This document shows positions 46,884 through 64,000 of a DNA stretch of 64,000 nt, piece by piece; the stretch's first letter is position 1, and each line of letters opens with the position of its first letter. The stretch lies in assembly GCA_027623295.1 (NCBI GenBank), contig JAQBXR010000007.1, positions 43,552 to 107,551 on the forward strand, given 5' to 3'. The notes beneath the pieces were generated by a model. That model did not search any database and had not been told where the DNA came from. It saw only the letters and a list, made by a program, of their open reading frames with translations. The position numbers and the translations under genes were made by a program. Source of the DNA: Planctomycetota bacterium (GTDB lineage: Bacteria; Planctomycetota; UBA1135).

Positions 46884-47528
46884 TTACTGGTTGTCGCTCT
46901 CTGCCTGATCCTGGCGATGGTATTCCACCAGCCAGCGGCGGTAACGTAACGGAACGTTCTCAGCAGAAGCGTTGTCGATGGCCTGTTGCAGCCGCGGTGG
47001 CAGCTTGCCCCATTGGCCATCCCGAGGATTGCGAAGGAAGTCACTTAAGGGTTGATCCAACAAACTAGACTGACCCTGATTCCCTTCCTGTTGCGAAGGC
47101 TTTGGTGAACCCTGAGAGGGCTTATTGCCATCGAAATCCTTATTCTCGGAGTCTTCCGATGAATCCTTTTGACCTTCCCCTTGACCTTCTCCGGGTGATT
47201 CCGAGTGGCCTTGACCTTGGCCTTGGCCTGGAGGCGGCGCGGGCAAGAGTTCTAGCAAGGCATTCATTTCGGCAACCAAATCACGGGACGCTTTCGCGGC
47301 TTCTTGCAATAAAAGAGGTTGCGCTTCTGATGAGACGGTTTCTGCGAGCGAAAGGTCATCGAACTGACGTACGGCTTCGCGCAACCTGGCATCGGCATCC
47401 GCAAATTTATTGGTGACCTCGGCAAGCTTGGCCTGCACTTCTTGCATGGTCACGGTTTCACCTTGAGGATTCGAATCCGGAAGAGGCGCAGGCTCTTGGA
47501 GAGCTAGTAGGGCTAAGGCTAAAAACAT
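46884..47528 (-). CDS. Secreted low-complexity protein, last gene of the MoxR-associated array
   Basis: Signal-like MFLALALLALQ and the Gly/Gln/Ser/Glu-rich stretch GQGQGQGHSESPGEGQGEGQKDSSEDSENKD. The C-terminal block is GQWGKLPPRLQQAIDNASAENVPLRYRRWLVEYHRQ. The start abuts the upstream stop with a 0-nt gap. Confidence 0.6.
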   Translation of the reverse strand: MFLALALLALQEPAPLPDSNPQGETVTMQEVQAKLAEVTNKFADADARLREAVRQFDDLSLAETVSSEAQPLLLQEAAKASRDLVAEMNALLELLPAPPPGQGQGQGHSESPGEGQGEGQKDSSEDSENKDFDGNKPSQGSPKPSQQEGNQGQSSLLDQPLSDFLRNPRDGQWGKLPPRLQQAIDNASAENVPLRYRRWLVEYHRQDQAESDNQ

Positions 47529-49115
47529 TTATAGGTCCTCCGATGCCGTTTCATCTTTCGCCTGCTGCAGGCGCTCGACCATGGATTCAAACTGCAAGTA
47601 CAACTCGCTCTGTCGGTTCAGCAACATTTCTAATTCCAAAGCATCTTCCGGACCGAATGGAATACCGGCATCGGCGAATGCTATCTGGCGGTCTTCCATG
47701 AGGGCCAACCGTTCCGCCAAGGATTCCTGCATGCGTTTGAGCAAATGCAGTTCCATGGCAAAGTTCACTAGCGGGAGCTCCTTCTCTTCCTGATCTTCCG
47801 CCTCTTGCGCTTGCCCTTCCTCGGAAGGAGGCTCTTCCAGGCGTTTACGAATACGCTCTTGTTCAATCCGAATCACTTCAATGAGCTGCTGCCAATCTTT
47901 GGTCAACGCAGCAGCCAACGGCATGGCCTGTCGATTTAGGCGATACCGGGGTGGGCCAATTTCTTTGGACAGCACCCCGTGATCCTGGCTCAAACCTTGA
48001 ATGTAAAGCGGGAAACTGTCCGCGCCAGCTTGATCGATGGTGAGCAGCAAATCTTCTGCTGCAATCGACAACTCGTTTTGAGCTAAGCTGATCTGACGGA
48101 GGTGAGTGCGGGTGCTACGTGGCACGCCTTCGTCATCGAGGTTGACCACGATGTCTGCTAGTTCTGTCTCCATTTGCATGTGGCGGTCCAAAATCACTTG
48201 GGCTTCACGCATGACATCCAACAAGGCTTCGCGACGTTTCTCCTCATCGGAGCGCTCCTGTTGGTCCTCGATTTGCTTTTGCGCTTTTTTCAGTTCTTCA
48301 AGCGCTTCCTTTTGCTTAGCGATGGCCTTATCGAGTTGCTCCGCCTGATCTTGCGGCTTGGTTTCTGCGGATTGCGGCCGCATTTTCTGGGCCGCTTCTT
48401 CGCTGGCATCTTCGGCCTTCTTTGATGGCAGAGAACGACGACCGGTTTGCTCTTCCTGCTCGCGGTTGAATTTCTCTAATTCCTCAGCCAAACGATTCTG
48501 TAACTCCGCTAATTCTTCTCGCTTTGCATCGAGCTCTTCCTGCGCAGGAGGGGTTTCCCCATTCGGTTTTTCAGTTTCACCGTTCGGATTCGCTGGGTCC
48601 GTCGACGCCATGTCTTTCTGTTCTTTTGCTTCTTGCTGATCTTGCAACTTCTGCGTTTGTTGCATCAAGTTTTCTTGGCGTTGAGAAAACTCCTGCAAGG
48701 CTTCCGCGCGCATAAGCATCGCTTTCTCTAAAGCCATTTCGCGCTCACGACGTTCACTTTCAACCAGGTGATCCAAAAGGTCCTGCAATGTCTGAATCAA
48801 TTCCGCTTGACCTTCTAAGGCGTTCCCGGAATGCAGGGAAGTCAGCTCTCGTGCGACGCCATCAATTGCGGCGGCCAAGGTACCGGTTTCCTCGGCGCCC
48901 TTCAGCTTTTCACGGGCACGCAGCAAAAGCTCTGCGCGATCGGTACGCCCTTCTTCGAGGTCACGCTTCTCAAGCATTTCCAAGAGCTGTCCAAGACGAC
49001 GCACCTGTTCTGCCACCTGGCGCTGCTCGGTGGCTAAGCGCCCGAATTCGACAGGGTCCTGCGCCATAGGCATGGGCGCAAAGTGGAGCATGGAGGCAAG
49101 GACGAGTGAAAGCAT
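47529..49115 (-). CDS. Secreted long coiled-coil protein (Glu/Gln/Lys/Leu-rich)
   Basis: Signal-like MLSLVLASMLHFAPMPMA, then about 500 aa of heptad-like charged sequence (for example ELAELQNRLAEELEKFNREQEEQ and KQKEALEELKKAQKQIEDQQERSDEEKRRE). Confidence 0.65.
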   Translation of the reverse strand: MLSLVLASMLHFAPMPMAQDPVEFGRLATEQRQVAEQVRRLGQLLEMLEKRDLEEGRTDRAELLLRAREKLKGAEETGTLAAAIDGVARELTSLHSGNALEGQAELIQTLQDLLDHLVESERREREMALEKAMLMRAEALQEFSQRQENLMQQTQKLQDQQEAKEQKDMASTDPANPNGETEKPNGETPPAQEELDAKREELAELQNRLAEELEKFNREQEEQTGRRSLPSKKAEDASEEAAQKMRPQSAETKPQDQAEQLDKAIAKQKEALEELKKAQKQIEDQQERSDEEKRREALLDVMREAQVILDRHMQMETELADIVVNLDDEGVPRSTRTHLRQISLAQNELSIAAEDLLLTIDQAGADSFPLYIQGLSQDHGVLSKEIGPPRYRLNRQAMPLAAALTKDWQQLIEVIRIEQERIRKRLEEPPSEEGQAQEAEDQEEKELPLVNFAMELHLLKRMQESLAERLALMEDRQIAFADAGIPFGPEDALELEMLLNRQSELYLQFESMVERLQQAKDETASEDL

Positions 49116-49129: not shown

Positions 49130-51226
49130 CTATCGTTCAGAAGCTTCTTGGGTACGTAGATAAAGTCCGCGTTGGCGCTCCAAAAGGGAGCGTAACAAGT
49201 TCACGGCACTGTTAAAGTCCTCCCAGGCGAGTAGGATTTCGAGAATCCCATCGAGCTGCTCCCTTAATTCGCTGGCGGCAGCTTGGGTCGGGCGGTTTTC
49301 GTTAGCGGCTTCGAGCAAAAGAGCACCTGGCCCAGTGCGAGCCTGGAGCAGGGCGCGACTTAAATCGAGCAGCATGGCGGAGCGGTCCAGCGGTGCTGGC
49401 AGGTCTGCCGAGAGCAGGGCTTCGGTGAGCACGCCTGGCTTGGGCATACCCTGGACTAGCTGAGCCTCGGCGGTTGGCCAGAGCGTGGCAGTCTGACGAT
49501 CGAGGCCAGAATAGACGCGTTCCAGAAGGTAATACTCGGCGCTGCCCAGCCCAGAATCGAGTTCCTTGAGCAAGCGTCGAATATTCCGTGACGACGGATT
49601 GGCGTCTGGTTCGGCGAAGGCTGCGGCGCGATCGCGCATGCCTTCAATACGTTCGCGCAAGCGCACAATGCGTTCGCCAAGACGTTGTTCTTCTACGCTT
49701 GCAGGAACAATCTCAATCCAAGGTGAGTTGGATTCCGCCACATTGCCTTCGGGCTGCGCTTGATCCATCGCCTGGAGTTGGAATCGGTAACGATTGTCTT
49801 CATAAGACTCCACCGAGAAGTTCTCAGCGGTTTCTAAGCGAAGGACCTTGCGAATGTCACGCGTGCCCAAAGTGTATGGCAGCGCGATTTCTTGCTCATG
49901 GCGTCCAAGGAGTTTGACATTGCCTAGGCCGAAGTCATCGTGCACTGCAATTGCGAGTGGGACTTTGCCACCAGGAACACTCAGCCACCGTTCATGCGGG
50001 AACAAAAAGCGCGGTTCCGGACGGCGGTCGGGAGTGGCGGTCCATTTCAGAACTGCGGCACGCTCTTGACGGAAGCCATCGATGCCGGAGAGCGCAAAGG
50101 ACATTTCCCCAGAACCGGAAACTTGGAACTCCAATGAGTACATGCCGTCTTCGTCGGGAGATAGGACTTCATTGGTGCCATCCAGTAGCTTGTAACGCAC
50201 CTCGGAAGTTTGGCGATCGGGACGCAGTTGCACCTGAACCGAAGAACCGCGCAGCAAACGTAGTTCATGGAACGGGCCTTCTTCACCAACGAGTTGGGTG
50301 TAGCTTGGGGGGGAAGTCCGCACCAACCAATCGCTGATTCCAGGAGCATCGCCTGCGCGAATTGCAAGCCGAGGAAGGCCATCGGTGTCATCGCCGCCGC
50401 GGAAGTGAAAGTCGGTATCGGTGCGTATAGGTGGAAGGCGCAATACAAAATTGCCACCACCTAAATCATGCATCGGACGTGATTGACCATTGCTTATGGC
50501 CTCTAGGCGGTCGGGGATCACGCCTTCGGCACGGACTCGAAGTGAAACCACAGAGCCGCGCGCGACTGAAAGGGTGTACTCCTCATGACCGTGAATCTCA
50601 AACTCCACCGGTTCGGCCAAGCCTTCCAAGTAGGCCGGCATGAGAACCAGATGGGTGTCGGAGGGCCAAGCTGTGGATTGGCCTAAGGCGCGTTGCATGA
50701 AAATCATCGCTTCTCCCGGATAACCCCAAACACCAAGTAGAAGCACGGCGATGGCACCTGCTCCCATTAAGAAACTGCGCCGTGCACGTCCGGTAGGGAC
50801 GACGGTTCTAGCATCTAAACCTTCACTCAAAGCCACCGCTTCTAGCGTGACTTCTTCCAGCATTTCGAGCGAAGATTCGCGCGGGTCATCGGCCAGTTCG
50901 ACGGCCGTAGAGAGCCGGTCTTTGAAGGCAGGGGCTTTGCGTTCCCAGATTGCAGCAAGGTCGCGGTTGGCCGGACGGTGGCGTAAGGGTTGCCAAAGGT
51001 CTTTGCCAATCTGCCAAGTTAAGACACCCAATGCGCAGATTTCCAAGATGATGCGGACTGCCGTGGGTGGATCGAGCAAACGGTCCAGCAGGTACAGTGC
51101 AAGCAAGGCTCCGGCAAAGTTCAGCACCGAACGTCCTACACCGTAGACCAAAAGGACTACGAAGAGACGTTGTTCGAGCGCACGTAAGAGTTGGCGCAGC
51201 GCTGCGGGAAGGGAAGCGCGACTCAT
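49130..51226 (-). CDS. Membrane protein with N-terminal TM segments and a large extracytoplasmic domain (DUF4175-like, from memory)
   Basis: ATG 51226 gives an ATGA overlap with the upstream stop. Hydrophobic segments are LFVVLLVYGVG, NFAGALLALYLL and IILEICALGVLTW. The ORF-track start at 51322 lies inside the upstream gene. Confidence 0.6.
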   Translation of the reverse strand: MSRASLPAALRQLLRALEQRLFVVLLVYGVGRSVLNFAGALLALYLLDRLLDPPTAVRIILEICALGVLTWQIGKDLWQPLRHRPANRDLAAIWERKAPAFKDRLSTAVELADDPRESSLEMLEEVTLEAVALSEGLDARTVVPTGRARRSFLMGAGAIAVLLLGVWGYPGEAMIFMQRALGQSTAWPSDTHLVLMPAYLEGLAEPVEFEIHGHEEYTLSVARGSVVSLRVRAEGVIPDRLEAISNGQSRPMHDLGGGNFVLRLPPIRTDTDFHFRGGDDTDGLPRLAIRAGDAPGISDWLVRTSPPSYTQLVGEEGPFHELRLLRGSSVQVQLRPDRQTSEVRYKLLDGTNEVLSPDEDGMYSLEFQVSGSGEMSFALSGIDGFRQERAAVLKWTATPDRRPEPRFLFPHERWLSVPGGKVPLAIAVHDDFGLGNVKLLGRHEQEIALPYTLGTRDIRKVLRLETAENFSVESYEDNRYRFQLQAMDQAQPEGNVAESNSPWIEIVPASVEEQRLGERIVRLRERIEGMRDRAAAFAEPDANPSSRNIRRLLKELDSGLGSAEYYLLERVYSGLDRQTATLWPTAEAQLVQGMPKPGVLTEALLSADLPAPLDRSAMLLDLSRALLQARTGPGALLLEAANENRPTQAAASELREQLDGILEILLAWEDFNSAVNLLRSLLERQRGLYLRTQEASER

Positions 51227-52296
51227 CGAGTGAAGATCGGGAGGTACTCCTTCGGAATTTGCAAGATAAGGCAAGCGGTTGCGGTGCCGTAATTGGTGCC
51301 GGGGCCAGTGCGGTTCGGCCACGAGCCATCTTTACGTTGCATGCTTAGGAGTTCCGCCGACACCACGCGTAAGTAGTTGCGATAACTCTCGCCACCCACA
51401 ATGTGGAAGGCTTGCACGGCATAGTAGTGGCCATAGTAAAAGTAGTAATGGCCCTCGACGTGTTTGCCGAAACGTTTGGTGAAGTCCCCCAGTTGGGCTT
51501 CCATGCGCTTGATGCCCTTTTCAATGTCAGCATCTGCGTAAACCCCGGCGCCGTGCAGAATCGTAATTCCAGCAGCGGTGAGAGCGAAGGTCGCACGCGA
51601 TTGCAAGTCGGGCTGATAGCGGAAGTCCCCAGGACGCGCCTGCATGTGAATGCTCCAGTCCGGATCGTCTTCCCGCACTGCACTTTTACGTACATAACTC
51701 ACTGCATCGTTAATGGTGGAGACCGGAACTTGAATACCGATATTCCGTGCAGCGCGCAAAGCTAAAACCTGACAGGCAGCAACCGACATGTCGGCATCGG
51801 CCACGTGAGGCTGATAACGCCATCCGCCTTGTTCATTCTGGCTGGCCACAATTAGGTCAATGGCCTTTTGCAAAGCTGGGCGCAAATCCTCGCGTTGCGT
51901 CATGCCATAAACCTCGGCTAAAAACAGAGTGGAGAAGGCATGGGAGTACATGCGGGTTTCATGCGCGGTGATGTAACCATCTTGATGCACCTGCTTCAGC
52001 AAGTAATCCACCGTCTTATCCACCACGCCGCCGTACTTGCCACGTCCAGGCACGTGCCCACCGGCTAAGAACGCCATGCCCGCTAATGCGGTAACGCCCA
52101 CGTGCGCGGCATCGCGATTCCATACCCGATAACCTTCCTCTAACTTATAGCCGACGTCGGCGTTCCAGGAGCCATCGACGTTTTGTTGCTCGGCCAAGTA
52201 CTGCAGGCCACGCTCGGCGGCTTCCAGGCCGGAGGTGGAGAGACCGCTGATTGGGTTAGCGGTTTGGAGGAGTAGGAGGAGTGCGCTAAGGATCAT
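51223..52296 (-). CDS. Secreted alpha/alpha-toroid protein with squalene-cyclase/prenyltransferase-type QW repeats
   Basis: QW-like motifs are GLQYLAEQQNVDGSW, AIDLIVASQNEQGGWRY and AELLSMQRKDGSW. A short signal-like N-terminus is present. ATGA overlaps occur at both ends. Confidence 0.7.
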   Translation of the reverse strand: MILSALLLLLQTANPISGLSTSGLEAAERGLQYLAEQQNVDGSWNADVGYKLEEGYRVWNRDAAHVGVTALAGMAFLAGGHVPGRGKYGGVVDKTVDYLLKQVHQDGYITAHETRMYSHAFSTLFLAEVYGMTQREDLRPALQKAIDLIVASQNEQGGWRYQPHVADADMSVAACQVLALRAARNIGIQVPVSTINDAVSYVRKSAVREDDPDWSIHMQARPGDFRYQPDLQSRATFALTAAGITILHGAGVYADADIEKGIKRMEAQLGDFTKRFGKHVEGHYYFYYGHYYAVQAFHIVGGESYRNYLRVVSAELLSMQRKDGSWPNRTGPGTNYGTATACLILQIPKEYLPIFTR

Positions 52297-55200
52297 TGGT
52301 TTCCAAGCAAAGTGATGAGGTCGCCGTTGCGTAATAACACCATACCCGGCATCAACGTGATGTATTGTGAACTCAGGGATCTGGCGGTGCTTGGCGTGGT
52401 ATAAGAATCCTGCAGCAATCCTTGCTCATTGAACAAGAGTAAGCTCAGGCTGGTTGCGGCACGGCGGGAGCCACCTTCGCGGAGAAGGAGGACCCAACCG
52501 TCGTCGCCGCGTTGTGGCCGCGGCGTAGGTTCGACTAAGTGTGAAAATGGAATTTCGGTAAGTAAACTAGTCCATTTAGTCTCTAGTTCACCCATTTCTA
52601 GGCATTGCACTTCTGCTTGATCACGGGCTGCAGGCTGCAGAGCCAGGAACTCCGTGCCATCCAGGACATCGGGGTGGCGCAAGCGCGTGAGGAACTGCGG
52701 AACGCGTACCGCAGGATCGAGGAAACGATGGGTCCAAGTCCGACGGTCACTGGGACGTAACCAGTTCAAGGTTAGTGGGCCAAGGTCTGCACCTAATCCA
52801 CGTTGCGGGCGAGTCCACCAACCAATGCCTTCCTTGACGCGGAAGGTGCTGAAGTCCAAACCTTGCAGTGAAATGCTGCGTGAAGGGCGATTCGGACTCT
52901 CAATCAGAATGGCGCCCTGGGGTGAAGTGCGTGTGGTGGGAATCGCAATGCCATCGCCAAAGGAAGCCACCGCTTGCAGCTCATCCCAGCGCGGCGCAAA
53001 CGGAAGTTCAAACGTGACCACTTCTTCTTCACGTAGCAAGTTCACGCGGTACACGGTGGAGGAGCGATCTTGCAAAACATGCAGATAGTCCTGGTTGGTA
53101 ACGATGTGAAGGTAACGGTCCGCCGTAGCACTCAGCGCTTGCTGCAAATAAGGCACACCCGTTTCCAAATCAAGCACACTGACCACAGCCTGACGTCCGG
53201 GAGCACTCAGCAGTACGGCCACAAAGCTTCCAATCTGGCTCGGCGTGGAGGTGCTGATAAGTGGCATATTCAGCAAACGCTCTTGGCGAAGGCCGCGATA
53301 GTCAATGTGAATCCAGCGGTCCTTGTACAGCACGGCAATCCCGGTCTTGGTGCCAAAGCGATACTTCTCCAAATTGGGCAAGCTGCTCGAGCCTGGAAGG
53401 AAATCCACGGTGTGCAGCAAACGCGAACCTTCAGCGGCGAGGCGCAGAATTTGGCATTGGTTGTCGTCTTGCAGGAAGACGTAAGCCGCGCCATCGACCG
53501 AAATGCTGTGCAAGGGAAGGGCGCCGTCGAGCTTCACGCTCACTAAAGGAGTCAGGTTTGTGGGCAGTGGCGGCAAGGCCTCTTGGTGCTGCAGCATTGC
53601 CGGAATGGAAGGCCAACTGCGGTCCTTTGCTCCAAAGCGATAGCTCCATGCCATCAACTCCATACGATCAACTTGATCTAGCTGAGTATCTTGCAGTTGG
53701 ATTTGCATCCAATCTTGCGCGGCCTTGGTGTTGGCATAGGCGCGCAGGAAGGCCAAATTCGGCGGCGCGACTTCCAGCCTGGAAAGAGCCGCTTTTTGAT
53801 GCGCAGCACCCATACCTGGATCTTGGATTAAAGTATCGAGCAGGGCGCGAGCCCAAACGTGTAAACTGAGATTGCCGACTTGCAAGCTACCGGCATCTTC
53901 AAGCAGGAGTACGGAAACTAAAGCAGCGCGTTGTGCTTCAGCATCGCGACCATCGAGTGCTCGTAAAGCTTCGGCGCGCAGCAAAGCAGCACTGCGCGGT
54001 TCCATGTGATTGCCGCGGGTGAGTACTCGGTCTGGGTTCTCGAACTTCACAATGTCCAAGGCCAGCTGCAAGCGTTTTGCCGTCACATCGATTTCAGGCT
54101 GAGCATCGAGAATAAGGCTAGCGGCATTGAGGCGCAGGCGGTTATTAGCGCTGTCGAGTAGATCGCCCAGTTCGCTTAAGCCCTTCCTGGTTTCGCCCAC
54201 TAGCAATAAAGTGCGTCCGGCAAGGAAGTGCAGCTCTTCGGCTTGAGCAGCAAACAAATCTCGTTTGGCAAGGTCACTTGCGGTGCGTGCGATTCGATGT
54301 CCAAGGCCGGGGTCCTCTTCATAGCGCACCGCTTCAAGTAACGGCAGGAGCTCGCGCAATAACTCCGGCGTGAGATCATGCGCCACCAAAGTATCGAGCA
54401 AGGCGCCGGGGCTTGCAAAAGCAATGATGCCCTTGCTGGTCATTAATAAAACCAAACCGTGAGTGACCTGAGCAGGGCCAATGAAGCGGCCTTCCAACTC
54501 TTCCCAAGTCAGTGCACCGGCGCGGATCGAAAGCGCATCTGGATCGAGTTCCACCACGCCATTCGAGCTCATGGCTAACACGCTTTTGTGCGTCAAAGCG
54601 CCGGCATTCAGGTTGGATGCATTCAGGCTGACGAACTCATAAAGCGGCGGGCTGGTTTGCGGACGTTGGGTGACGTTCTCCTCAAGTGGCAAGCGAGCCA
54701 CATGAGTGCCCGAGAACCATGCATACTTTTCATCCATGCCAATGAGGTTGCTCAAGGTGCCGTAAAGATTATTGTTGGCCTCAGCGACCCAGCGGCTAAG
54801 GCGACGACCATCTTCCGCATCGAGGGTCATTGCGAACATGCTGTCGGTCGGCGCCACCACAAGGCGCTTGCCATCGTAAGCCGGTGGGTTGTTATGGAAG
54901 TAACGCGCGCGGCTTCCAATCTGTCCGTTCTGGCGAGTACGAACGGTCGTGCGGGTGTAGGTGCGAGTCCAAATCGCATTGCCGGTGGCGGCATCGACGG
55001 CACAAATGGCACCGAAGTGAGTGCATACATAGACGCGTTCCAAATCGGCCACGGGCGGTGGTACCGCGAGCTCCGACAAGACATTGCCGAACAAGTTGGT
55101 TTCCATGGTGCCGCTCACTAAGAAGCGCTTCCACAAACGCTTGCCAGTGTGTAAATCAAAGGCCAACAAGGAAAGGTCAATGGTGCCGGCGGCGGTGTAA

Positions 55201-56279
55201 ACCGGAAGGTAAACCCGACCCCCTGAAACGGCAGGAGGACCCGCGGCAAGCTCAATCGGGTTGCGGTTTTCTGGATCCATCCAGGTGACTTCCTGCTTCC
55301 ACAGGATGTCGCCATTCACAGCATCGAAAGCGTAGAGTCGGCGCGCCGGCAGTTTTTTTCGAATTGGAATGCGGCTGTAACTATCCGAACGTCCAATGCC
55401 AACGGGCTCTTGGATGACGGCAAGCACAATGCCATCGGCTAGGACTGGTGCTAAGAGTGTGAGCGGCGAGGAACCATCCGTGATTTCATTACGATCATTA
55501 CTCCCAATGTGACTCCATCCGGGAGGGCCGTGGAAGTGCCAGCGCGGTTGTCCCGAACCAAGTTCTAGCGCGACCACCTCACGCCCATTGGTGGCAAAAC
55601 CGAGGCCGTTGCCAAAGGCCATACGATGCCCGAGATCTGCGGTAGGAGCGTCGTCGTCAAAGGAGAAACGCCACGCAGGGTCGAGTTCCATAGGGCGCAA
55701 CCTTGGCAGCGCAGGATCGCTTAGGTTTTGGAAGACCGGTGGGGCCAGGGCGTCGAAGGGTGGCCGTGGCGGGAGCTGTGCTTGCCATTCGGGAGAGAGT
55801 GGCGCGGCACCTTGGGCCAGAGCGAGTTGTGGATAACCGCGGTCATACCAAAGCTCTTGGAGCAAGACATTGGCGCGATCGCCGACCATCGAACCGCTGT
55901 AGCGTTGCGCTATTAGCTCGAGAAGATGCACATCGGGAGGGCGCATAGCCTCTTCCAATTCCAACTCGGCGCGCGCTGCGATGAGGCTCTCGCGAATAGG
56001 AATCGCTGCAGCAGGGAGTTTGGAAAGTAGAGACTGGGCACGTTGCACCGCACCGATGTAAAGAAAATCTTGATCCGCAATGAGCGCAGAAGGATCGGCG
56101 TCGGCCACTTCTTGCAGAAGCCCCACGGCAGCTTCCCACCGTTCATCGGCAAGATAAGCTTGTGCATCGGAAATCTTAGTCGCCAGAATGCGGTTCTCCG
56201 GTAAGGAAATCCCTTCTGGTAAATCCTCTTGCGCAACCACCTGCGCACCGAAAACGGCGAGCATTAGAAGACTAGGCAT
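52293..56279 (-). CDS. Giant secreted PQQ/BamB-like beta-propeller protein with helical (solenoid-like) regions
   Basis: Propeller blades: VVALELGSGQPRWHF, AVNGDILWKQEV, LLAFDLHTGKRLWKRF, ICAVDAATGNAIWTRTY and MTLDAEDGRRLSRW. A Leu/Ala/Arg-rich helical stretch of about 300 aa follows. ATG 56279 gives the signal peptide MPSLLMLAVFGAQVVAQ, 11 nt after the upstream stop. Confidence 0.75.
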   Translation of the reverse strand: MPSLLMLAVFGAQVVAQEDLPEGISLPENRILATKISDAQAYLADERWEAAVGLLQEVADADPSALIADQDFLYIGAVQRAQSLLSKLPAAAIPIRESLIAARAELELEEAMRPPDVHLLELIAQRYSGSMVGDRANVLLQELWYDRGYPQLALAQGAAPLSPEWQAQLPPRPPFDALAPPVFQNLSDPALPRLRPMELDPAWRFSFDDDAPTADLGHRMAFGNGLGFATNGREVVALELGSGQPRWHFHGPPGWSHIGSNDRNEITDGSSPLTLLAPVLADGIVLAVIQEPVGIGRSDSYSRIPIRKKLPARRLYAFDAVNGDILWKQEVTWMDPENRNPIELAAGPPAVSGGRVYLPVYTAAGTIDLSLLAFDLHTGKRLWKRFLVSGTMETNLFGNVLSELAVPPPVADLERVYVCTHFGAICAVDAATGNAIWTRTYTRTTVRTRQNGQIGSRARYFHNNPPAYDGKRLVVAPTDSMFAMTLDAEDGRRLSRWVAEANNNLYGTLSNLIGMDEKYAWFSGTHVARLPLEENVTQRPQTSPPLYEFVSLNASNLNAGALTHKSVLAMSSNGVVELDPDALSIRAGALTWEELEGRFIGPAQVTHGLVLLMTSKGIIAFASPGALLDTLVAHDLTPELLRELLPLLEAVRYEEDPGLGHRIARTASDLAKRDLFAAQAEELHFLAGRTLLLVGETRKGLSELGDLLDSANNRLRLNAASLILDAQPEIDVTAKRLQLALDIVKFENPDRVLTRGNHMEPRSAALLRAEALRALDGRDAEAQRAALVSVLLLEDAGSLQVGNLSLHVWARALLDTLIQDPGMGAAHQKAALSRLEVAPPNLAFLRAYANTKAAQDWMQIQLQDTQLDQVDRMELMAWSYRFGAKDRSWPSIPAMLQHQEALPPLPTNLTPLVSVKLDGALPLHSISVDGAAYVFLQDDNQCQILRLAAEGSRLLHTVDFLPGSSSLPNLEKYRFGTKTGIAVLYKDRWIHIDYRGLRQERLLNMPLISTSTPSQIGSFVAVLLSAPGRQAVVSVLDLETGVPYLQQALSATADRYLHIVTNQDYLHVLQDRSSTVYRVNLLREEEVVTFELPFAPRWDELQAVASFGDGIAIPTTRTSPQGAILIESPNRPSRSISLQGLDFSTFRVKEGIGWWTRPQRGLGADLGPLTLNWLRPSDRRTWTHRFLDPAVRVPQFLTRLRHPDVLDGTEFLALQPAARDQAEVQCLEMGELETKWTSLLTEIPFSHLVEPTPRPQRGDDGWVLLLREGGSRRAATSLSLLLFNEQGLLQDSYTTPSTARSLSSQYITLMPGMVLLRNGDLITLLGNQ

Positions 56280-56290
56280 GCGCAGTGAGA

Positions 56291-58528
56291 TCAAGACAGG
56301 TTGAGGCGTTTGCGGAGAATCCATTCTGCGGCGGCGCAAAGAATTGCGAGTCCGAGGAATGGCCAAGGCGAAAGAGGTTCGCGCGAACTGTTGAGAATGC
56401 GGGTCACGCGCTCGCGACCATCTAAGGTTTCGAGCAGTAGGTTGGCCTCTTCTGAGCTGACTAACATGCCCCCGGTGCGGCCGGTGATTGCCGTAAGCAG
56501 AGCACGGTCTTGCGAAGTGTCTGCCATCTCACGGGATGGCAGGCTGACATGAAAGCGGGCACTAGCAACGGCTTCACTGTCAGGGTCGCCATCGGCGGTG
56601 AGGTAAACGCGTGCTGCTCCCGGAGTGGAAGCGCGTAAGCGTCCGCGGTAAATGCCGGGTTGGTCAGCGATGGGGCGTAAATCGGCCGCGCGGCCAGCAC
56701 CTTCTAAGAATAGAGGTACGCCTTCTTCATCCACCACTGGCTGGAAGCTGTCATCGAGCAAACGCACTTCGACTTGAAGGAATGCGCCGAGTTCAATTTC
56801 ACTGCGGTCAAGATCGAGACGAATGCGACCACGATCTCCGCGCAAACGTGTAGCCGCCAAGTGGCGCAAAGCGGAACGCCAGAAACGGTCGACGTATCGC
56901 TCGCCCCCCGGGAAGCGCCAGCGCCAAGTTTCATCGGTACCAATCCAGCCGACCCAGCCTTCGGGCGCAAAAATACTTGCAGCCAAAATGTGGGGGCCAT
57001 ATTGGTTTTCATAATCTGGGTTCACCAACCATGCGGTGGCGCCAGGACGCAAACGTTCCACAGGCTGATACCACTCCAGCTTGGCCGAGGTTTCCCAAAG
57101 CTGCCGGTTCTCTTCCTGATCGCTGGAGAACAGCACCACCGGATGAGGGCGTTGCAGGTCGGGCGGTATGGGAGCGAAGCCCAGTTGCGGCGGCAAGGCT
57201 TCCTTACCGATCAGCACCGGCAAGAGGTCCTCAATGGGAGAACCAACATAAGCACGCGGGTTGTGCATCGGGCCGGCGAGCATGAGCAGCCCGCCACCTT
57301 TTTCGACGAACTCGGACAATCCAGCTAAGAAGCGTTGGCCATCGAGTGGATCGGGCGTAAGGCGGGTTGGGTCCACATCGCCTAGGACGACGAGATCAAA
57401 CTGGTCGAGCAAGTCGGTGGCGTCGATGGGTAGACGCAAAAGCGAACGGGTGCCGCGCGAATGTTCTTGTGGGAAGGAACGGTCGGCGTCCGCCAACCAC
57501 AGATTCACCATGACATCGCGTTCGGCGCGGATGAGGCGGTCACGAATGAAGCGGTATTCCCAACGCGGTTTGCCTTCCACGTAGAGCACCCGCACTTTGA
57601 CTTCCTTCACCGTCAGGCTCAGTTCCAAGCGGTTGTTGTCCGTGGCCGTTTCGCCTGCCATCGGCAAGACTTCCGCGACCAAGCGACGTTCGCCTGGCGT
57701 TTGCAGAAGTGCAGACAGCACCAAGTTGACGCCGTTTTCATCGAGCTCTTCAACGGCGGCGCGATCTAACTCATTGCCGAGTTCATCGAGGAGCCGCACC
57801 ACGGCGCGTTCCGGAAGTGGGGAACCGCCGGCGCGTAGACGCAGCGAGAAGAGTCCGACATCGCCCGCTAACACCAAGTCTGGAGTTTGCACGCGTTCCA
57901 GAATCAGGTCGGGTGCTTCTTCGGCCTGTCCAAAGGAAACCGCGTGTAGCTTGACACCTTCTGCGCGTAAACGGTCGGCGGCTTCGAGTGGGTCATTGCC
58001 TAGGTTGGTGCGGCCATCGCCAAAAAGCACCACGTCTGGCATGCGTCGCCCACGATATTCCGCAAGCAATCCTTCCAGTGCATTGCCTAAAGAAGAAGCT
58101 TGGCCGGCGCCACTTAGTTCTTCACCGTTGGTGGTGGTGGCGGCAAGTCGCTCGCTATAGCGCCAAGCCTGTAGCTGATACTTGCTTTCAAACTCTTCGC
58201 GCAAGGGCGACGCGAGCAAAGATTGCAGCTCGGTCAGGCGCGAGGGTGCGCCTGGACTGTCCGAGATTCGCATGGAGGCGGAATCATCGAGAAGCAAGGC
58301 AAGAGGAGCGGTTTCTGATTCCACGCTGTCGTGCTGGAGAGCAGGGCCAAAGCTTAGGAATAGCACCGTTGCGAAGACCATTAAGCGCAAACCCATAGCG
58401 AAGCGTCGTGCCACGCGGGAACGCTTGCGTAATCGGTAGGCCATTGCCGAAATCAAAACGGCAATCGGTACGATGAGCAGCCCTAAAACCCAGGGTGGTG
58501 GCAAGTGCGAGAAGACGAGGTGGTTCAA
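56291..58528 (-). CDS. Membrane-anchored VWA-domain protein with a GATase1-like module (BatB-like)
   Basis: The N-terminus has two TM segments (WVLGLLIVPIAVLISAMAY and LMVFATVLFLSFG). The MIDAS motif is LLLDDSASM. A second module reads FDLVVLGDV...FVEKGGGLLMLAGP. The C-terminal TM is WPFLGLAILCAAAEWIL. TTGA overlap with the upstream gene. Confidence 0.75.
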   Translation of the reverse strand: MNHLVFSHLPPPWVLGLLIVPIAVLISAMAYRLRKRSRVARRFAMGLRLMVFATVLFLSFGPALQHDSVESETAPLALLLDDSASMRISDSPGAPSRLTELQSLLASPLREEFESKYQLQAWRYSERLAATTTNGEELSGAGQASSLGNALEGLLAEYRGRRMPDVVLFGDGRTNLGNDPLEAADRLRAEGVKLHAVSFGQAEEAPDLILERVQTPDLVLAGDVGLFSLRLRAGGSPLPERAVVRLLDELGNELDRAAVEELDENGVNLVLSALLQTPGERRLVAEVLPMAGETATDNNRLELSLTVKEVKVRVLYVEGKPRWEYRFIRDRLIRAERDVMVNLWLADADRSFPQEHSRGTRSLLRLPIDATDLLDQFDLVVLGDVDPTRLTPDPLDGQRFLAGLSEFVEKGGGLLMLAGPMHNPRAYVGSPIEDLLPVLIGKEALPPQLGFAPIPPDLQRPHPVVLFSSDQEENRQLWETSAKLEWYQPVERLRPGATAWLVNPDYENQYGPHILAASIFAPEGWVGWIGTDETWRWRFPGGERYVDRFWRSALRHLAATRLRGDRGRIRLDLDRSEIELGAFLQVEVRLLDDSFQPVVDEEGVPLFLEGAGRAADLRPIADQPGIYRGRLRASTPGAARVYLTADGDPDSEAVASARFHVSLPSREMADTSQDRALLTAITGRTGGMLVSSEEANLLLETLDGRERVTRILNSSREPLSPWPFLGLAILCAAAEWILRKRLNLS

Positions 58529-60696
58529 AGGTTGCGCCTCCGGTCAAGGAACCAAGCACACAGTGTTTCACTGACAAGGAAGCCGAGTACCAAAAGCAAC
58601 AAGATGCGCGTCAGGTCTCGTGGCGGGGAGTCTGCGTTTTCCGTTTGGACAAGATCTTCGTCGGGATTGCCAATGCGCACCGATTCCGGTAAGAATTCAA
58701 GCAGGCTTGCGGCTTCTGCAGCGCGCAAATCACTTTCTTCGGTCGGAATGACGACGGCGAGTGGCTGCTCGAGCAAGACTTCCTCGCCATCAGGCAGCAG
58801 CAGGCGGGTATTCAAATGCCAAACTCCTGGGCGCGGAACAGATTCCAAAAGTTCCAAACGCGTGCGCCCATTTTCTAGGCTCTCCAAATCGGCAAGGCCA
58901 TTGAGTAGTAGGCCAGCGGGGTCGCGAAGTTGCGTATCGGTCGGCGGGTGATTCAGGCGCAGGCTAAGTGCGCTGCCGACCGGGTAGGAGACGGGGAAGC
59001 CTGGCTTTGGCGCTAAAGAAAACAGCAGGTCATAAATCAGCGGCAAGGTGCCACCGGGCAGTTCTTCCATGCGGTTCCAACCTGGCAGCGGAGAGCTAGC
59101 CAAAACGGCGACTTGTCCTTGGCCGAGTTTCCAGTCCACCAAAGCTGCACCAGAATCTAAGTTGGCGTCCTGCTGTAAGAAGCGCAATCCAATGTGCAAG
59201 TTCTCAGCGAGATTGGGGTCGACGTTCAGCGGACGATAAGTCGCATGCGGCACTTCAGTCAGCAAAGGCTTCCAGCGGACATCGTTGAAGAAACGCAGGG
59301 CGGGTGTATTGGCATCGACAATGTCGAGCCGTGCCGGAGATTCCACGGCTTGGATAGGAGTGCCAACACTAAGGCCCACCGCGCCGAGTTGCTGCAGCAG
59401 ATTTTGCAGTTCCCCTTGACCGGTTTGGGGACCAAGCGCAATCATTAAACCGCCGCCCGCCTTCACGAAACTGGCGATGCCTTCTGCGGTGCGTAAAGGA
59501 ACACGTCCAGCATCGGCGAGGATGAGTAAATCAAACTCGGCGAGGGCCTCTTGGTCAACCAGAGGGAGCGGTAGTGCAGTGGGGCGTAGTGGGGCCCATT
59601 CTCCCAGCGATAGATAGCGCCACATGCCATCGAAAACATTGGGCGTATCTTGTGGAGCTGAGGCTTCTCCAGCAATCATTACGCGGAAGCCATCGCCTAC
59701 ATCCAAAATGCTGGCGCGGGTGTCGTCGCCGACCAAAGCGTCGTGTTCAAGGCGCACTTCTAAGGCGCGGGCACCACTTTTTATGGGTGCAACAGCGACA
59801 TTCCAGTCCATCGGTTGACGTCCACCCAGAACAAAGCTTTCACTTGCGATGGGGGTCTCATCCATAAGCAAAGTTGCCTGAACGGTGGCTTCAGTTTCGC
59901 CGAAATTGCGTAGCGAAATCAGGACGCTGCAAGAGTCACCACGCACTAAACGTGGAGTGGAAAGTTCAATTCCCGTAACCCCAACGTTGGGGCGCAAGGA
60001 TGCACCGCAGTCCAGGACTTGAACATCGCATCCGAGAGCCACTAACTCAGCAAAGGGAGCACTGAATCCACTTTCGATATTCCAAGTGTTCGCCTGTAGG
60101 TCGGTCAATACCGTGACCGAAATGCGCGAAGGATCTGGACCTAAATCTTCCACCGTGCGTGCGGCTGCATGCAAAGCGCCAAGCAAGTCTCCTTGCGATG
60201 GATCTGCCATTTCCAACTCTTCCAACACGCTGCGCACTTCATCGGGGTCTCCCGATGCCACTCGCTCCGCGCGCATTCCAGCACGGATCACTGCGGCGCG
60301 GTCTTCCATTTTTGGGTCTAACTCGCGAAGCCGCTTGGCTGCAATCGAAAGCGCTTTCCCATACGCGCTTTGGCCTTCTCCCAAGTGATTCATCGACAAG
60401 GAGGCATCCAGAATCAAAACTTCGGCACGTGCATCGCGACCGAGAACCAACGGCAAGTCCTCACTGTTGGGGCGCGCCAATGCGAGAATCAAGAACAACA
60501 CGGCCAAGGTGCGCAAGATCAACAGCAAGACGTCTTCCAGTAAAACCCGACGTCGGGTGCGGCGGACGGCGCGCATTAGGAAATCCATGGCGCTGAACTC
60601 AACGCGGCGGAAGCGCCGCTTCTGCAACAGGTGAATGATGATGGGCACCAACACCAGGGGCAAAGCCCAAAGCACTAATGGAGCGGCAAAGTTCAT
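58525..60696 (-). CDS. BatA-like protein with an N-terminal double-TM region, a VWA domain and a GATase1-like module
   Basis: MNFAAPLVLWALPLVLVPIIIHLLQKRRFRRVEF is a BatA_N-type N-terminus. The MIDAS motif is VLILDASLSM. A second module reads FDLLILADAG...FVKAGGGLMIALGP. The C-terminal TM is ILLLLVLGFLVSETL. ATGA overlap with DUF58. Confidence 0.8.
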   Translation of the reverse strand: MNFAAPLVLWALPLVLVPIIIHLLQKRRFRRVEFSAMDFLMRAVRRTRRRVLLEDVLLLILRTLAVLFLILALARPNSEDLPLVLGRDARAEVLILDASLSMNHLGEGQSAYGKALSIAAKRLRELDPKMEDRAAVIRAGMRAERVASGDPDEVRSVLEELEMADPSQGDLLGALHAAARTVEDLGPDPSRISVTVLTDLQANTWNIESGFSAPFAELVALGCDVQVLDCGASLRPNVGVTGIELSTPRLVRGDSCSVLISLRNFGETEATVQATLLMDETPIASESFVLGGRQPMDWNVAVAPIKSGARALEVRLEHDALVGDDTRASILDVGDGFRVMIAGEASAPQDTPNVFDGMWRYLSLGEWAPLRPTALPLPLVDQEALAEFDLLILADAGRVPLRTAEGIASFVKAGGGLMIALGPQTGQGELQNLLQQLGAVGLSVGTPIQAVESPARLDIVDANTPALRFFNDVRWKPLLTEVPHATYRPLNVDPNLAENLHIGLRFLQQDANLDSGAALVDWKLGQGQVAVLASSPLPGWNRMEELPGGTLPLIYDLLFSLAPKPGFPVSYPVGSALSLRLNHPPTDTQLRDPAGLLLNGLADLESLENGRTRLELLESVPRPGVWHLNTRLLLPDGEEVLLEQPLAVVIPTEESDLRAAEAASLLEFLPESVRIGNPDEDLVQTENADSPPRDLTRILLLLVLGFLVSETLCAWFLDRRRNL

Positions 60697-61595
60697 CGAC
60701 GCTCACCCAACTTCTGTGCATTGCGTTGTGCAAGGAATCCCACTAAGCCGACTTCGAGTGGTTCTTCAATAGGCATGCGACGGAAGGCACAGCCAGCACT
60801 ACGCAAACCGCGACGCAACTCTGCACCATGCTTCTCAAATTCCTCTAGGTACGCCGCACGAATCGTGTTCGGATCGGCGTGCAAGTAGGCGTCACTCTCC
60901 AAACCTTCAAAGCGAGTGTTGCGCAAAAAAGGGAAATCGACTTCTGCATGATCCAAGGTACGCAATGCAATCACATCGTGCCCTTTCCGGCGCAGTTGAT
61001 TGACTCCCGTTGCGGCTTCCTCTGGGGTTCCCAAGAAGTCACTGATCCAAACCACCAAACCGCGGCGGTCCATTTGCCCGGCGGCAAGCTGCATACCCAA
61101 AGCGGGGTCGCCAGCGCCTGCCGGTTCTGATTCCGCCAACATATGACAGAGACTTTTCCAGTGTCCTTCGCCACCGCGTGCCGGCAGAGTGCGTTCCAAC
61201 TTCTCGCCGTGAGTCAGGATTAAACCGAACTGGTCATGCTGATCACAAGCTACACGCGCTAAAGCTGCAGCCAACCACGAGCCGTATTCATACTTATTCC
61301 ACGGACCGCTGCTGAACTGCATGGATGCCGAAGCATCGAGCACAATCCACAGGCGAAGATCGGTTTCTTCCTCATACTCACGGATGATGTTACGGTCAGA
61401 CCGAGCCATCAAGCGCCAGTCCAAACGGCGCAAGTCATCGCCGGCAACGTATTCCCTATGTTGCGCAAAGGTAGTACTCGACCCCTTAATAGGGGACTGA
61501 TGACGTCCACCGCGGAGACCTTCCACAGCAGTACGGGCGCGCAACTCTAAGCGTTGCAGCCGGGCACGTAGCCTAGGATCCGATGCCTGCTGCAC
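60693..61595 (-). CDS. DUF58-family protein (VWA-like)
   Basis: FAQHREYVAGDDLRRLDWR and WIVLDASASMQF (DxSxS). It sits immediately after MoxR. The GTG start overlaps the moxR 3' end by 23 nt. Confidence 0.85.
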   Translation of the reverse strand: MQQASDPRLRARLQRLELRARTAVEGLRGGRHQSPIKGSSTTFAQHREYVAGDDLRRLDWRLMARSDRNIIREYEEETDLRLWIVLDASASMQFSSGPWNKYEYGSWLAAALARVACDQHDQFGLILTHGEKLERTLPARGGEGHWKSLCHMLAESEPAGAGDPALGMQLAAGQMDRRGLVVWISDFLGTPEEAATGVNQLRRKGHDVIALRTLDHAEVDFPFLRNTRFEGLESDAYLHADPNTIRAAYLEEFEKHGAELRRGLRSAGCAFRRMPIEEPLEVGLVGFLAQRNAQKLGERR

Positions 61596-62610
61596 GGTCT
61601 CCGTCTAAAGCACTCGGGTGAGCCTGGATTCTCTGAAGTAGCTGCTGGATGACATCGTCTGGTGTGACGTTTTCAGCTTCGGCAGCAAAGTTGGTGAGAA
61701 TGCGGTGACGCAAAACCGACGGCGCGACGGCATCGACATCTTCTGCGGAAGCGTGGAAGCGACCCTGAATGAGTGCGCGTGCTTTGGCCGCCAGAATCAT
61801 GTTCTGCGATGCGCGCGGGCCGGCGCCCCAAGTGACCCACTGACGAATGAAGTCCGGAGCCTCGTCGGAGGGGCGGGAAGAGCGGGCAATCCGCACCGCA
61901 TAATCGATCACGCTGTCAGAGACCGGCACTTTGCGGACCAAGTTCTGCATTTGCACTAGCTGTTCGGCATCCAACACAACCTCTACTTTGCTTTCGGTGG
62001 ATCCGGTGGTGCGGCGCAGAATCTCGGCCTCTTCCTCAGCGGACGGATAGTCCACCTTGATCAAGAACAAGAAACGGTCGAGTGCCGCTTCGGGAAGGGG
62101 ATAAGTACCTTCTTGTTCAATCGGGTTCTGGGTCGCGAGCACGAAAAACGGATTCGGCAGCGGTCGTGTGGTACCAGCCGAGGAAACTTGACGTTCTTGC
62201 ATGGCTTCCAACAGCGCGGCCTGAGTTTTAGGCGGGGTGCGGTTGATCTCGTCGGCCAACACAATGTTGGAGAACACCGGACCGTTGACGAAGCGAAAAC
62301 TGCGCTCGCCCGTCTCGGGGTCGGCGTGCAGGACCTCCGCGCCGGTAATGTCGGCAGGCATGAGGTCTGGAGTGAACTGAATGCGGCGGAAATCCAGGTC
62401 TAAAGCGCGTGAAAAGGTGCTGATAAGCAGGGTTTTCGCCAATCCTGGCACTCCTACGAGCACGGCATGGCCGCGGGCAGCCAGAGCTATCGAGAGCTCC
62501 TCAATTACTAAATCTTGGCCCACGATCACGCGGCCAATCTGTTCACGGAGCTTTTGGAAGGCCTCAGCGAAGGCCTTGGCAGATGCCACATCGGTTGTTG
62601 GTTCAGTCAT
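61573..62610 (-). CDS. MoxR-family AAA+ ATPase
   Basis: Walker A GVPGLAKT, Walker B VLADEINR, FVLATQNPIEQEGTYPLPEAALDRF and ASPRAS. Confidence 0.92.
   Translation of the reverse strand: MTEPTTDVASAKAFAEAFQKLREQIGRVIVGQDLVIEELSIALAARGHAVLVGVPGLAKTLLISTFSRALDLDFRRIQFTPDLMPADITGAEVLHADPETGERSFRFVNGPVFSNIVLADEINRTPPKTQAALLEAMQERQVSSAGTTRPLPNPFFVLATQNPIEQEGTYPLPEAALDRFLFLIKVDYPSAEEEAEILRRTTGSTESKVEVVLDAEQLVQMQNLVRKVPVSDSVIDYAVRIARSSRPSDEAPDFIRQWVTWGAGPRASQNMILAAKARALIQGRFHASAEDVDAVAPSVLRHRILTNFAAEAENVTPDDVIQQLLQRIQAHPSALDGDRAAGIGS

Positions 62611-63094: not shown

Positions 63095-64000
<906 letters not shown>

Follow-up and report, generated by a model that had tools for sequence, protein, structure and literature searches.

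What does a giant exported beta-propeller protein do inside an operon that encodes a MoxR ATPase and VWA-domain proteins? This question is raised by a 64,000-nucleotide stretch of DNA from a Planctomycetota bacterium (GTDB lineage UBA1135; assembly GCA_027623295.1, contig JAQBXR010000007.1, positions 43,552 to 107,551 of the forward strand), referred to below as the window. An operon of ten minus-strand genes runs from 62932 to 46884, and the sixth of them encodes a four-domain secreted protein, called here the propeller-solenoid protein. Operons of the MoxR-proper/DUF58/BatA-VWA class are widespread (bat in Bacteroides, cmd in Rhizobium, and also in Borrelia, Leptospira and Francisella) and affect envelope integrity and stress tolerance. 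To our knowledge, methanol dehydrogenase is the only target so far assigned to them. On the evidence described below, we give an even chance to the propeller-solenoid protein being a non-enzymatic, Sec-exported periplasmic scaffold or docking platform and a fixed subunit of a Planctomycetota-specific operon of this class. What is new is that an envelope operon of the Bat/Mxa MoxR-VWA type includes a giant periplasmic propeller-solenoid protein specific to this lineage.

The linkage of the gene to MoxR was examined by tblastn with eleven window proteins (those of the ten operon genes and of eno) against 42 homologous loci. As far as the contigs reach, the same genes were found in the same order and on the same strand at all 42. 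MoxR, DUF58, BatA and a second large membrane protein, VWA745, were present in this order and orientation in 30 of 30 loci that extend at least ~6.4 kb upstream, the remaining 12 being contigs that end too early on that side. The next four genes were present in every locus that reaches downstream. The first-pass annotation of this DNA had placed the gene inside a MoxR/VWA operon, and the MoxR, DUF58, BatA and VWA genes do lie directly upstream on the same strand; the constant co-occurrence of orthologues with moxR, which it had proposed to check, held in every testable locus. The operon is translationally coupled, with stop and start codons overlapping at most junctions (from 5′ to 3′: -8, -23, -4, -4, -34 or +11, -4, -4, +14 and 0 nt). 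The propeller-solenoid protein is the least conserved member, with 28–35% identity where MoxR has 70–78% and the adjacent alpha/alpha-toroid protein 60–72%. Since the neighbourhood is kept across loci whose propeller-solenoid proteins are only 28–45% identical, the data indicate a stable chromosomal core locus and not a mobile island. The protein was found in 39 species (one genome scanned per GTDB species), all of them uncultured Planctomycetota, including UBA1135, UBA7888 and UBA8587, and apparently marine judging from the isolate names.

By its gene content the operon belongs to the same class as Bacteroides bat, Rhizobium cmd (RL3499–RL3502) and methylotroph mxaRSACKL. A MoxR gene of the AAA_3 family is followed immediately by a DUF58 gene, with an overlap of 23 nt. 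The membrane-anchored VWA proteins include a double-transmembrane (double-TM) protein that matches Pfam BatA (2.3e-20) and TIGR02226 (2e-20) and has an Arg-rich loop between TM1 and TM2. Helical repeats are represented by the N-terminal arm and the solenoid of the propeller-solenoid protein itself, and four further exported or membrane proteins are encoded in the operon. The DxSxS motif of the metal-ion-dependent adhesion site (MIDAS) is intact in all three VWA-type proteins, and the Arg-rich TM1–TM2 loop is found in both membrane ones. Because the MIDAS lies just after TM2 and the TM1–TM2 loop is Arg-rich, the VWA domains of both membrane proteins are predicted to face the periplasm. This orientation has been shown experimentally for a BatA-family VWA domain, that of Borrelia BB0173 (PMC5700661).

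MxaR is the founding member of the class; together with MxaS (DUF58/VWA), MxaA, MxaC, MxaK and MxaL it inserts Ca2+ into the periplasmic pyrroloquinoline quinone (PQQ) propeller protein MxaF, and these six accessory proteins are required for the periplasmic incorporation (PMC12276312). Shared with the window operon are the MoxR-proper ATPase (MxaR), the DUF58/VWA protein (MxaS), membrane VWA proteins (MxaC, MxaL) and a periplasmic PQQ-type propeller (PMC12276312). The two systems differ in that the propeller-solenoid protein is not a quinoprotein dehydrogenase, has no Cys-Cys pair and carries three extra domains; the membrane VWA proteins are twice as long, and the hosts are marine Planctomycetota, not methylotrophs. 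No equivalents of mxaI, mxaJ or mxaG were seen among the ten operon genes in Pfam and NCBIfam scans. Of the known systems, mxaRSACKL offers the closest functional parallel, and the relation there is that of a client or partner, as distinct from coat assembly. For mxa it is established that MoxR and DUF58 act, by way of membrane VWA proteins, on a PQQ-type propeller in the periplasm, and the same scheme is proposed here. That a marine Planctomycetota lineage keeps a PQQ-type propeller protein fixed in such an operon suggests that the pairing of a MoxR/VWA machine with a periplasmic propeller is more general than the methylotroph case. The propeller-solenoid protein and the adjacent toroid protein thus become concrete candidate clients or partners for this operon class.

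The Bat, Cmd (RL3499–RL3502) and Borrelia bb0170–bb0176 operons share with the window operon MoxR, DUF58, BatA-type double-TM VWA proteins, proteins with tetratricopeptide repeats (TPR), which are regular in Bat operons (PMC5700661), and further membrane proteins. In the case that was tested, their VWA domain faces the periplasm, and envelope and morphology phenotypes are on record (PMC5700661, PMC3893208), RL3499-type operons influencing membrane integrity and cell shape (PMC3893208). The descriptions of the Bat and Cmd operons in these two papers include no beta-propeller or alpha/alpha-toroid protein, whereas the operon described here has ten genes, and in it the TPR-like element forms part of a giant propeller-solenoid-beta protein.

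The architecture of the protein was studied with AlphaFold2 models of residues 130–1328 (1199 residues, from a 51-sequence alignment) and, separately, of residues 620–905, residues 1–129 lying outside the models; residue numbers are those of the 1328-aa form unless given as model residues. The larger model has a pLDDT of 89.5 and a pTM of 0.66. Four domains make up the protein as modelled: a propeller of the BamB/PQQ type comes after a TPR-like N-terminal arm (N-arm) and is followed by an alpha-solenoid and then by a second beta domain. The search for homologues returned 77 proteins, nearly all of 1290–1385 aa, with identities down to 28% over the whole length. A second subfamily of ~1470–1740-aa PQQ proteins (the ~1500-aa subfamily), reached through the toroid protein and a weak match (P0075), occupies the same operon position, with the same operon gene order, in other Planctomycetota metagenome-assembled genomes (MAGs). 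The profiles of the two subfamilies align over 1287 columns with an E-value of 1.8e-62 (HHalign). Their C-terminal domains are homologous (HHalign probability 95, E 3e-8), and divergence has left the middle solenoids unrecognisable as relatives (probability 9). No proteins of cultured organisms were among the matches listed in the searches with the protein itself and with the ~1500-aa subfamily profile.

Helices of the N-arm are visible at model residues 2–39 (residues 23–129 of the arm being outside the model). HHalign aligns the arm to the N-terminal part of the ~1500-aa proteins with a probability of 98.3, and a weak TPR_7 match is found in the arm itself. It is described as TPR-like because it is homologous to the subfamily region in which Pfam TPR_2 and TPR_6 are matched. 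The propeller, modelled with 31 strands, contains five PQQ/BamB-type blade signatures: ALELGSGQPRW at 237, YAFDAVNGDILW at 316, AFDLHTGKRLW at 373, AVDAATGNAIW at 426 and TLDAEDGRRLSRW at 484. Pfam PQQ_2 matches at 1.6e-20, and internal repeats are detected in the propeller profile with HHalign probabilities up to 98. When modelled alone, the solenoid reaches a pLDDT of 94.7 and a pTM of 0.88, and its pLDDT exceeds 90 inside the 1199-residue model as well. The N-terminal helical region, the five blade signatures, the helical stretch of about 300 residues and the second beta-rich region, all proposed in the first-pass annotation, were thus borne out by the models and profiles. The blade and repeat count that it had called for gave about eight blades and 15 solenoid helices, where loops or beta domains alone would have spoken against a solenoid.

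Beyond the propeller, described families are of little help. With Pfam at E≤10, nothing usable was obtained for the N-arm, the solenoid or the C-terminal domain, and a PDB profile search with the solenoid and C-terminal domain gave nothing below E 0.7. An exhaustive HMMER search with a profile of these two domains against 1.84 billion representative proteins returned 39 matches, of which ~33 belong to the same family. Outside this family, no relatives of the module formed by the two domains were detectable there. About 900 of the 1328 residues lie outside any described family. The C-terminal domain shows weak matches to the designed propeller Pizza6 (E 0.001) and to a YncE/lactonase-type propeller protein (E 2e-5); because of these two matches and the modelled strand pattern it is probably a second, highly diverged propeller. 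That it is a copy of the first propeller was rejected, the two giving an HHalign probability of only 2 and internal repeats being undetected in the C-terminal domain.

In Foldseek searches the propeller resembles the eight-bladed tetrathionate hydrolase, BamB and PQQ alcohol dehydrogenases (PQQ-ADHs), with E-values of 1e-11 to 1e-9 and a target TM-score of ~0.7, and tetrathionate hydrolase is the top structural match of the whole model. BamB, a protein-docking propeller, matches at E ~2e-11. BamB, which is among the best structural matches of the propeller described here, is a periplasmic, eight-bladed PQQ-like propeller that carries no cofactor and serves as a protein-docking platform, features that the two would share; it differs in being a single-domain lipoprotein of ~390 aa in another genomic context, the propeller-solenoid protein having no lipobox. 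We see a very slim chance that the protein is itself, in line with the public annotation, a BamB-type factor that assists the assembly of outer-membrane proteins in this lineage and has been enlarged with additional domains. BamB structures are among the top fold matches (target TM 0.7), PQQ_2 bears the name 'BamB' in Pfam, and NCBI and JGI label relatives 'BamB family'. The equivalog scores are, however, far under the cut-offs (TIGR03300, 37.1 bits against 285.2; NF008351, 25.9 against 423) and the lipobox Cys is absent, by which BamB identity was rejected. The protein is also over threefold longer than BamB, and in the loci examined it is never beside bam genes and always inside the MoxR operon.

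The distribution of conservation was compared between domains and between subfamilies. Median identity to the window protein is 45% in the propeller, 37% in the N-arm, 28% in the solenoid and 24% in the C-terminal domain. The entropy minimum of the family, at residues 281–440 within the propeller, marks the most conserved part of the protein, with the motifs GRSD.Y.RI.VRR, LPARRLYAFD, PVYDA.GT.DLS and ETNLFGNVL.ELA.PPP. On the AlphaFold2 strand map these motifs fall on the B–C hairpins and D–A loops of blades 2–5, at the face opposite the 'TG' turns. Within the ~1330-aa subfamily E291, D299, N395, N399, E403, D479 and several Arg residues are invariant. In both subfamilies together (188 sequences), the residues conserved to at least 90% are mostly G, W and P, and the polar ones among them are R313, R314, D319, S389, N395, Y441 and D479.

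The same conservation can be read in favour of the main rival explanation, in which the protein would be the client of the machine: a metal- or cofactor-dependent periplasmic propeller, enzyme or ligand receptor, with a top-face active site that is loaded by MoxR, DUF58 and VWA proteins as MxaF is loaded with Ca2+. We consider this unlikely, while keeping it in serious view. The operon logic is that of mxa, with MoxR, DUF58, two MIDAS-intact membrane VWA proteins and a periplasmic PQQ-type propeller (PMC12276312), and conservation is focused on the blade 2–5 loops with their invariant acidic, Asn and Arg residues. The top fold matches include tetrathionate hydrolase and PQQ-ADHs, and the adjoining toroid protein has a fold that is often enzymatic. 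On the other side, models of PQQ enzymes score only 27–28 bits against cut-offs of 480–830 (TIGR03075, 28.4 against 480; TIGR03074, 27.2 against 833), and PQQ dehydrogenase identity was rejected on these scores together with the absence of a vicinal Cys-Cys. A vicinal Cys-Cys disulfide ring is the active-site hallmark of the alcohol/methanol-type PQQ dehydrogenases. No CC dipeptide occurs in the protein, and just 2 of 51 family members have one anywhere. A single significant PDB sequence alignment was obtained; in it, a weak phmmer match to 1kb0 of 10 bits and low confidence, the Ca-ligand Glu of GAEYG is paired with Ala (TAAGTID against GAEYGVR). Few acidic residues are conserved across both subfamilies, and ~900 of the 1328 residues lie in modules of the TPR-like, solenoid or beta-domain kind, as is typical of interaction platforms.

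The docking platform is favoured because what is conserved across the subfamilies is mainly structural and because interaction-type modules account for two thirds of the protein. Its non-enzymatic character, to which the G/W/P-dominated conservation, the missing Cys-Cys pair and PQQ scores far below the cut-offs point, is part of this reading and is held with the same evenly divided confidence. In the mechanism that we propose, the conserved propeller face (B–C and D–A loops of blades 2–5) and the helical arms would bind partner proteins. The likeliest partners would be encoded on either side of the gene: the periplasmic VWA/MIDAS domains immediately upstream and the toroid protein immediately downstream. 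A cytoplasmic MoxR hexamer with its DUF58 adaptor would spend ATP in remodelling the membrane-anchored VWA proteins, and this remodelling may control the assembly or metal-dependent docking of a periplasmic complex, as is done for methanol dehydrogenase by MxaR/S/A/C/K/L. Four points weigh against the docking platform. The gene is the fastest-evolving of the operon, which is unusual for a central scaffold. The compact cluster of conserved loops, in which E, D, N and R residues are invariant within the ~1330-aa subfamily, would fit a site for a ligand, a metal or catalysis equally well. The top structural match, tetrathionate hydrolase, is an enzyme. Finally, as no function has been assigned to the Bat and Cmd operons themselves, the analogy to them carries limited mechanistic weight.

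The first-pass annotation had likened the propeller and solenoid to membrane-coat-like (MC) proteins from bacteria that belong to the Planctomycetes–Verrucomicrobia–Chlamydiae (PVC) group and to eukaryotic coat and nucleoporin scaffolds. In the rule of Santarella-Mellwig et al. (2010), MC architecture consists of a propeller N-terminal to a stacked-helix (SPAH) domain, and the rule is very permissive, requiring a fold E-value below 1 over 40 residues (PMC2799638). In the AlphaFold2 model the propeller (200–622) is followed directly by the 15-helix solenoid (624–896), and Planctomycetota MAGs are the source of every named homologue and of each of the 39 genome loci. MC proteins such as Gemmata gp4978 and Planctopirus Plim_1972 likewise belong to the PVC phylum, exceed 1000 aa and have a propeller N-terminal to SPAH (PMC2799638), and they share with the protein described here a probably periplasmic localisation, the paryphoplasm to which they were assigned having later been reinterpreted as periplasm (PMC5394234). 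The two-domain layout of the modelled Gemmata examples, with the propeller at the N-terminus and SPAH at the C-terminus, was not found, a TPR-like arm preceding the propeller and a 420-aa beta domain following the solenoid. Neither MoxR nor operon context is mentioned in PMC2799638.

It is improbable, in our estimate, that the protein is a PVC-type membrane-coat-like protein that polymerises on the membrane or shapes it from the periplasmic side, with assembly driven by the MoxR ATPase. A propeller with a stacked-helix solenoid in a PVC bacterium fits the operational MC definition (PMC2799638), the size is close to the 1039–1287 aa of Gemmata MC proteins (PMC2799638), and the signal peptide is compatible with localisation in the paryphoplasm (PMC5394234). 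The proposed comparison with coat and nucleoporin folds failed to single them out. Against the PDB, no Foldseek match of the solenoid was obtained at E≤0.001, and the best matches are generic: LapB (E 0.03) has the highest TM-score, 0.41, and beta-COP follows at E 0.09 and TM 0.33. The matches are a mixture of TPR (LapB, APC6), ARM (mDia1, beta-catenin, importin-alpha) and HEAT proteins (CpcE/F, beta-COP, AP-1 beta) with alpha-SNAP. Beta-COP and AP-1 beta are thus present among them, but the fit to TPR, ARM and importin repeats equals or exceeds that to coat proteins. Nucleoporin similarity is negligible, the only one appearing at rank 40 with a TM-score of 0.24, and the 50 whole-model matches listed contain no coat protein or nucleoporin but only propellers (BamB, tetrathionate hydrolase, PQQ-ADH).

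Further points bear against a coat. The protein has two additional large domains. Beyond the signal sequence, the hydropathy scan noted no membrane-binding element, only two buried beta-strand segments at 271–295 and 609–627; no amphipathic-helix or lipid-binding analysis was run. The MC definition itself is permissive, and in Planctopirus deletion of the one MC-like gene tested gave no uptake phenotype (PMC5394234). What survives of the coat-like description is the order of propeller and solenoid, the PVC host and the export, without specific likeness to coats or nucleoporins. The proposed tie to an ATP-driven module stands in so far as linkage to MoxR/VWA is invariant, while nothing in sequence or context points to membrane shaping. 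The architecture is best viewed as a BamB-type propeller with TPR-like repeats on either side, and the protein resembles a partner or client of the MoxR ATPase machine in the periplasm more than it does a eukaryote-style coat. The case weakens 'membrane-coat-like architecture' as evidence for a eukaryote link, since here that architecture comes down to a secreted BamB-type propeller with TPR-like repeats. A broader version, for which there is only a slender chance, is that giant propeller-solenoid proteins of Planctomycetota, a class formerly labelled 'membrane-coat-like', form periplasmic assemblies on the outer face of the cytoplasmic membrane, driven by MoxR/DUF58 through BatA-type VWA anchors. 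If this were true, the operon would encode an ATP-controlled machine, a scaffold or coat in the periplasm by which the cytoplasmic membrane of these planctomycetes is shaped or tethered, and it would supply the long-missing client of Bat-type MoxR operons.

MoxR, vWA and beta-propeller proteins are also encoded together in the 'ternary' conflict or defence systems of Kaur et al. (2020), in which the idea of MoxR remodelling a vWA-bound partner has likewise been put forward (PMC7159879). A secondary Pfam bpMoxR match of 46 bits and the fast evolution of the propeller-solenoid protein relative to its neighbours accord with such a system, to which we nevertheless concede scarcely any chance. The known systems are cytoplasmic and effector-bearing, with the propeller fused to vWA, and sporadically distributed (PMC7159879); here the propeller protein is separate and secreted, and the locus is fixed and housekeeping-like (eno, thiGS, nusA-infB) in 39 species. 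The MoxR is of the AAA_3/MoxR-proper type (204 bits), and Pfam found no effector domains in the operon proteins. PADLOC models matched none of the nine operon proteins scanned (the 109-aa protein being left out), and with the fixed housekeeping neighbourhood this led to the rejection of a defence system. We know of no literature that combines Planctomycetes, MoxR and BamB, none having been found in our search.

The start codon of the gene bears on its export. The open reading frame (ORF) was originally taken as 52293–56279 on the minus strand, 1328 aa from ATG 56279, and an identical protein of this length is already in the databases as a 'PQQ-binding-like beta-propeller repeat protein' of a Planctomycetota MAG. 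The minus-strand frame is open from 56366. The ORF is real and conserved, but its start probably needs correction: the Met at 56279 is replaced by Ile in an 89%-identical homologue and in loci L004 and L005, and an ATG or GTG is kept at the position of window ATG 56324 in P0002, L005, L007, L010 and L012. For these reasons ATG 56279 is doubtful and ATG 56324, giving 1343 aa, is probably the true start. The product would then begin MDSPQTPQPVLISLRMPSLLMLAVFGAQVVAQ↓EDL, and the gene would overlap the upstream gene by 34 nt. A second candidate is TTG 56294, which overlaps the upstream TGA. The deposited 1328-aa entry, which starts at ATG 56279, is probably 15 codons short.

A hydrophobic h-region followed by an A-x-Q/AQ↓E/Q-type site is found in nearly all of 51 aligned homologues, in agreement with the secreted nature first proposed for the protein. 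No lipobox Cys was found in the signal peptide, the consensus of these 51 sequences being a signal peptidase I-like AQ↓E site. The signal peptide is retained with every candidate start, including TTG 56366, so the concern that use of this upstream start would leave the protein cytoplasmic does not apply. As the signal peptide is present with all candidate starts and conserved family-wide, export by Sec into the periplasm is predicted whichever start is used. The coordinates of the gene, its domains and the other operon genes are collected in Table 1.

Table 1. Features of the ten-gene operon and of the propeller-solenoid protein (window coordinates; aa, amino acids).
Feature	Coordinates	Strand	Evidence and remarks
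Gene 1, 109-aa protein	62603..62932	-	one TM helix and charged coiled-coil-like tail by hydropathy; 8-nt overlap with MoxR start
Gene 2, MoxR AAA+ ATPase, MoxR-proper type, cytoplasmic	61573..62610	-	Pfam AAA_3 7.3e-61, 204 bits; AAA_lid_2
Gene 3, DUF58 protein, VWA-like, cytoplasmic	60693..61595	-	Pfam DUF58 4e-45; MIDAS motif DASAS at residue 87
Gene 4, 723-aa BatA-type membrane protein	58525..60696	-	N-terminal double TM, VWA with MIDAS DASLS, C-terminal TM
Gene 5, 745-aa double-TM protein (VWA745)	56291..58528	-	weak VWA match, MIDAS DDSAS just after TM2; position kept in all loci
Gene 6, four-domain secreted protein, whole gene	52293..56324	-	1343 aa from probable start ATG 56324, stop codon included; ORF list, homologues, start comparison
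Gene 6, signal peptide n-region	56280..56324	-	MDSPQTPQPVLISLR; upstream of h-region
Gene 6, Sec signal peptide h-region and predicted cleavage region	56229..56279	-	MPSLLMLAVFGAQVVAQ↓EDL; conserved in homologues
Gene 6, N-terminal TPR-like helical arm	55770..56213	-	residues ~23-170; then Pro-rich linker ~170-200
Gene 6, PQQ/BamB-type beta-propeller	54414..55682	-	residues ~200-622, about eight blades; long B-C hairpins in blades 2-3
Gene 6, alpha-solenoid	53592..54410	-	residues 624-896; 15 helices and two small beta hairpins (AlphaFold2)
Gene 6, C-terminal all-beta domain	52302..53552	-	residues ~910-1326; 35 strands in four-strand meanders (AlphaFold2)
Gene 7, secreted 357-aa alpha/alpha-toroid protein	51223..52296	-	prenyltransferase/squalene-cyclase-like repeats (Pfam, NCBIfam)
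Gene 8, polytopic ~700-aa membrane protein	49130..51226	-	no family match; syntenic in all loci
Gene 9, secreted 528-aa protein	47529..49115	-	weak DUF4175 match
Gene 10, secreted 214-aa protein, last in operon	46884..47528	-	syntenic

Among the neighbouring genes, the toroid protein is the best conserved periplasmic component, being 59–92% identical across loci in which the propeller-solenoid protein is 28–80% identical. Its start overlaps the stop of the preceding gene by 4 nt, and its relatives number more than 5600; the functional core of the system, or its true client, may be this protein. In both large double-TM proteins the DxSxS MIDAS lies within ~25 residues of TM2, the Pfam VWA matches are below the cut-off (E 6e-4 and 1.5e-3), and most of the ~700 residues of each have no family assignment. 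The ORF of gene 8 opens at GTG 51322, 100 nt inside the preceding gene, and ATG 51226, which forms an ATGA overlap, is the likelier start. The alphaproteobacterial version of the operon carries a DUF4175 protein, and the weak DUF4175 match of the 528-aa protein may be a further link to it. Of the 30 loci that extend as far as MoxR, 24 gave a tblastn match to the 109-aa protein of gene 1 upstream of it, at low identity. This protein matches no Pfam or NCBIfam model; we take its shape and its position after eno to be reminiscent of FtsB/DivIC.

The upstream limit of the operon is set by a strong terminator-like hairpin that separates it from eno, and the next gene downstream is convergent. The hairpin, at 63042–63067 on the minus strand just after eno, has 11 pairs, 8 of them GC, and is followed by a T-run. 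Rfam gave nothing in the window, and a promoter scan was uninformative (2 matches against 6 expected). In loci L001–L003, as in the window at 63095–64000, eno lies upstream (3/3); a hexapeptide-repeat gene lies downstream in all three, and thiG/thiS and nusA/infB lie downstream in two (L001 and L002).

Some differences were seen in the ~1500-aa subfamily. In two of its three operons (L043 and L045/L046) a second SQHop_cyclase-like gene follows the last conserved gene (L043, 21932–23038; L045, 17173–18381). This extra gene is absent from the subfamily of the window, and the gene at that position in L047 has no Pfam match. Residues 23–155 of the propeller-solenoid protein align with residues ~892–1024 of the L045 protein, in its middle helical region, with an HHalign probability of 80 and an E-value of 1.4e-5, which hints that the two helical regions may be duplicates of one TPR-like module.

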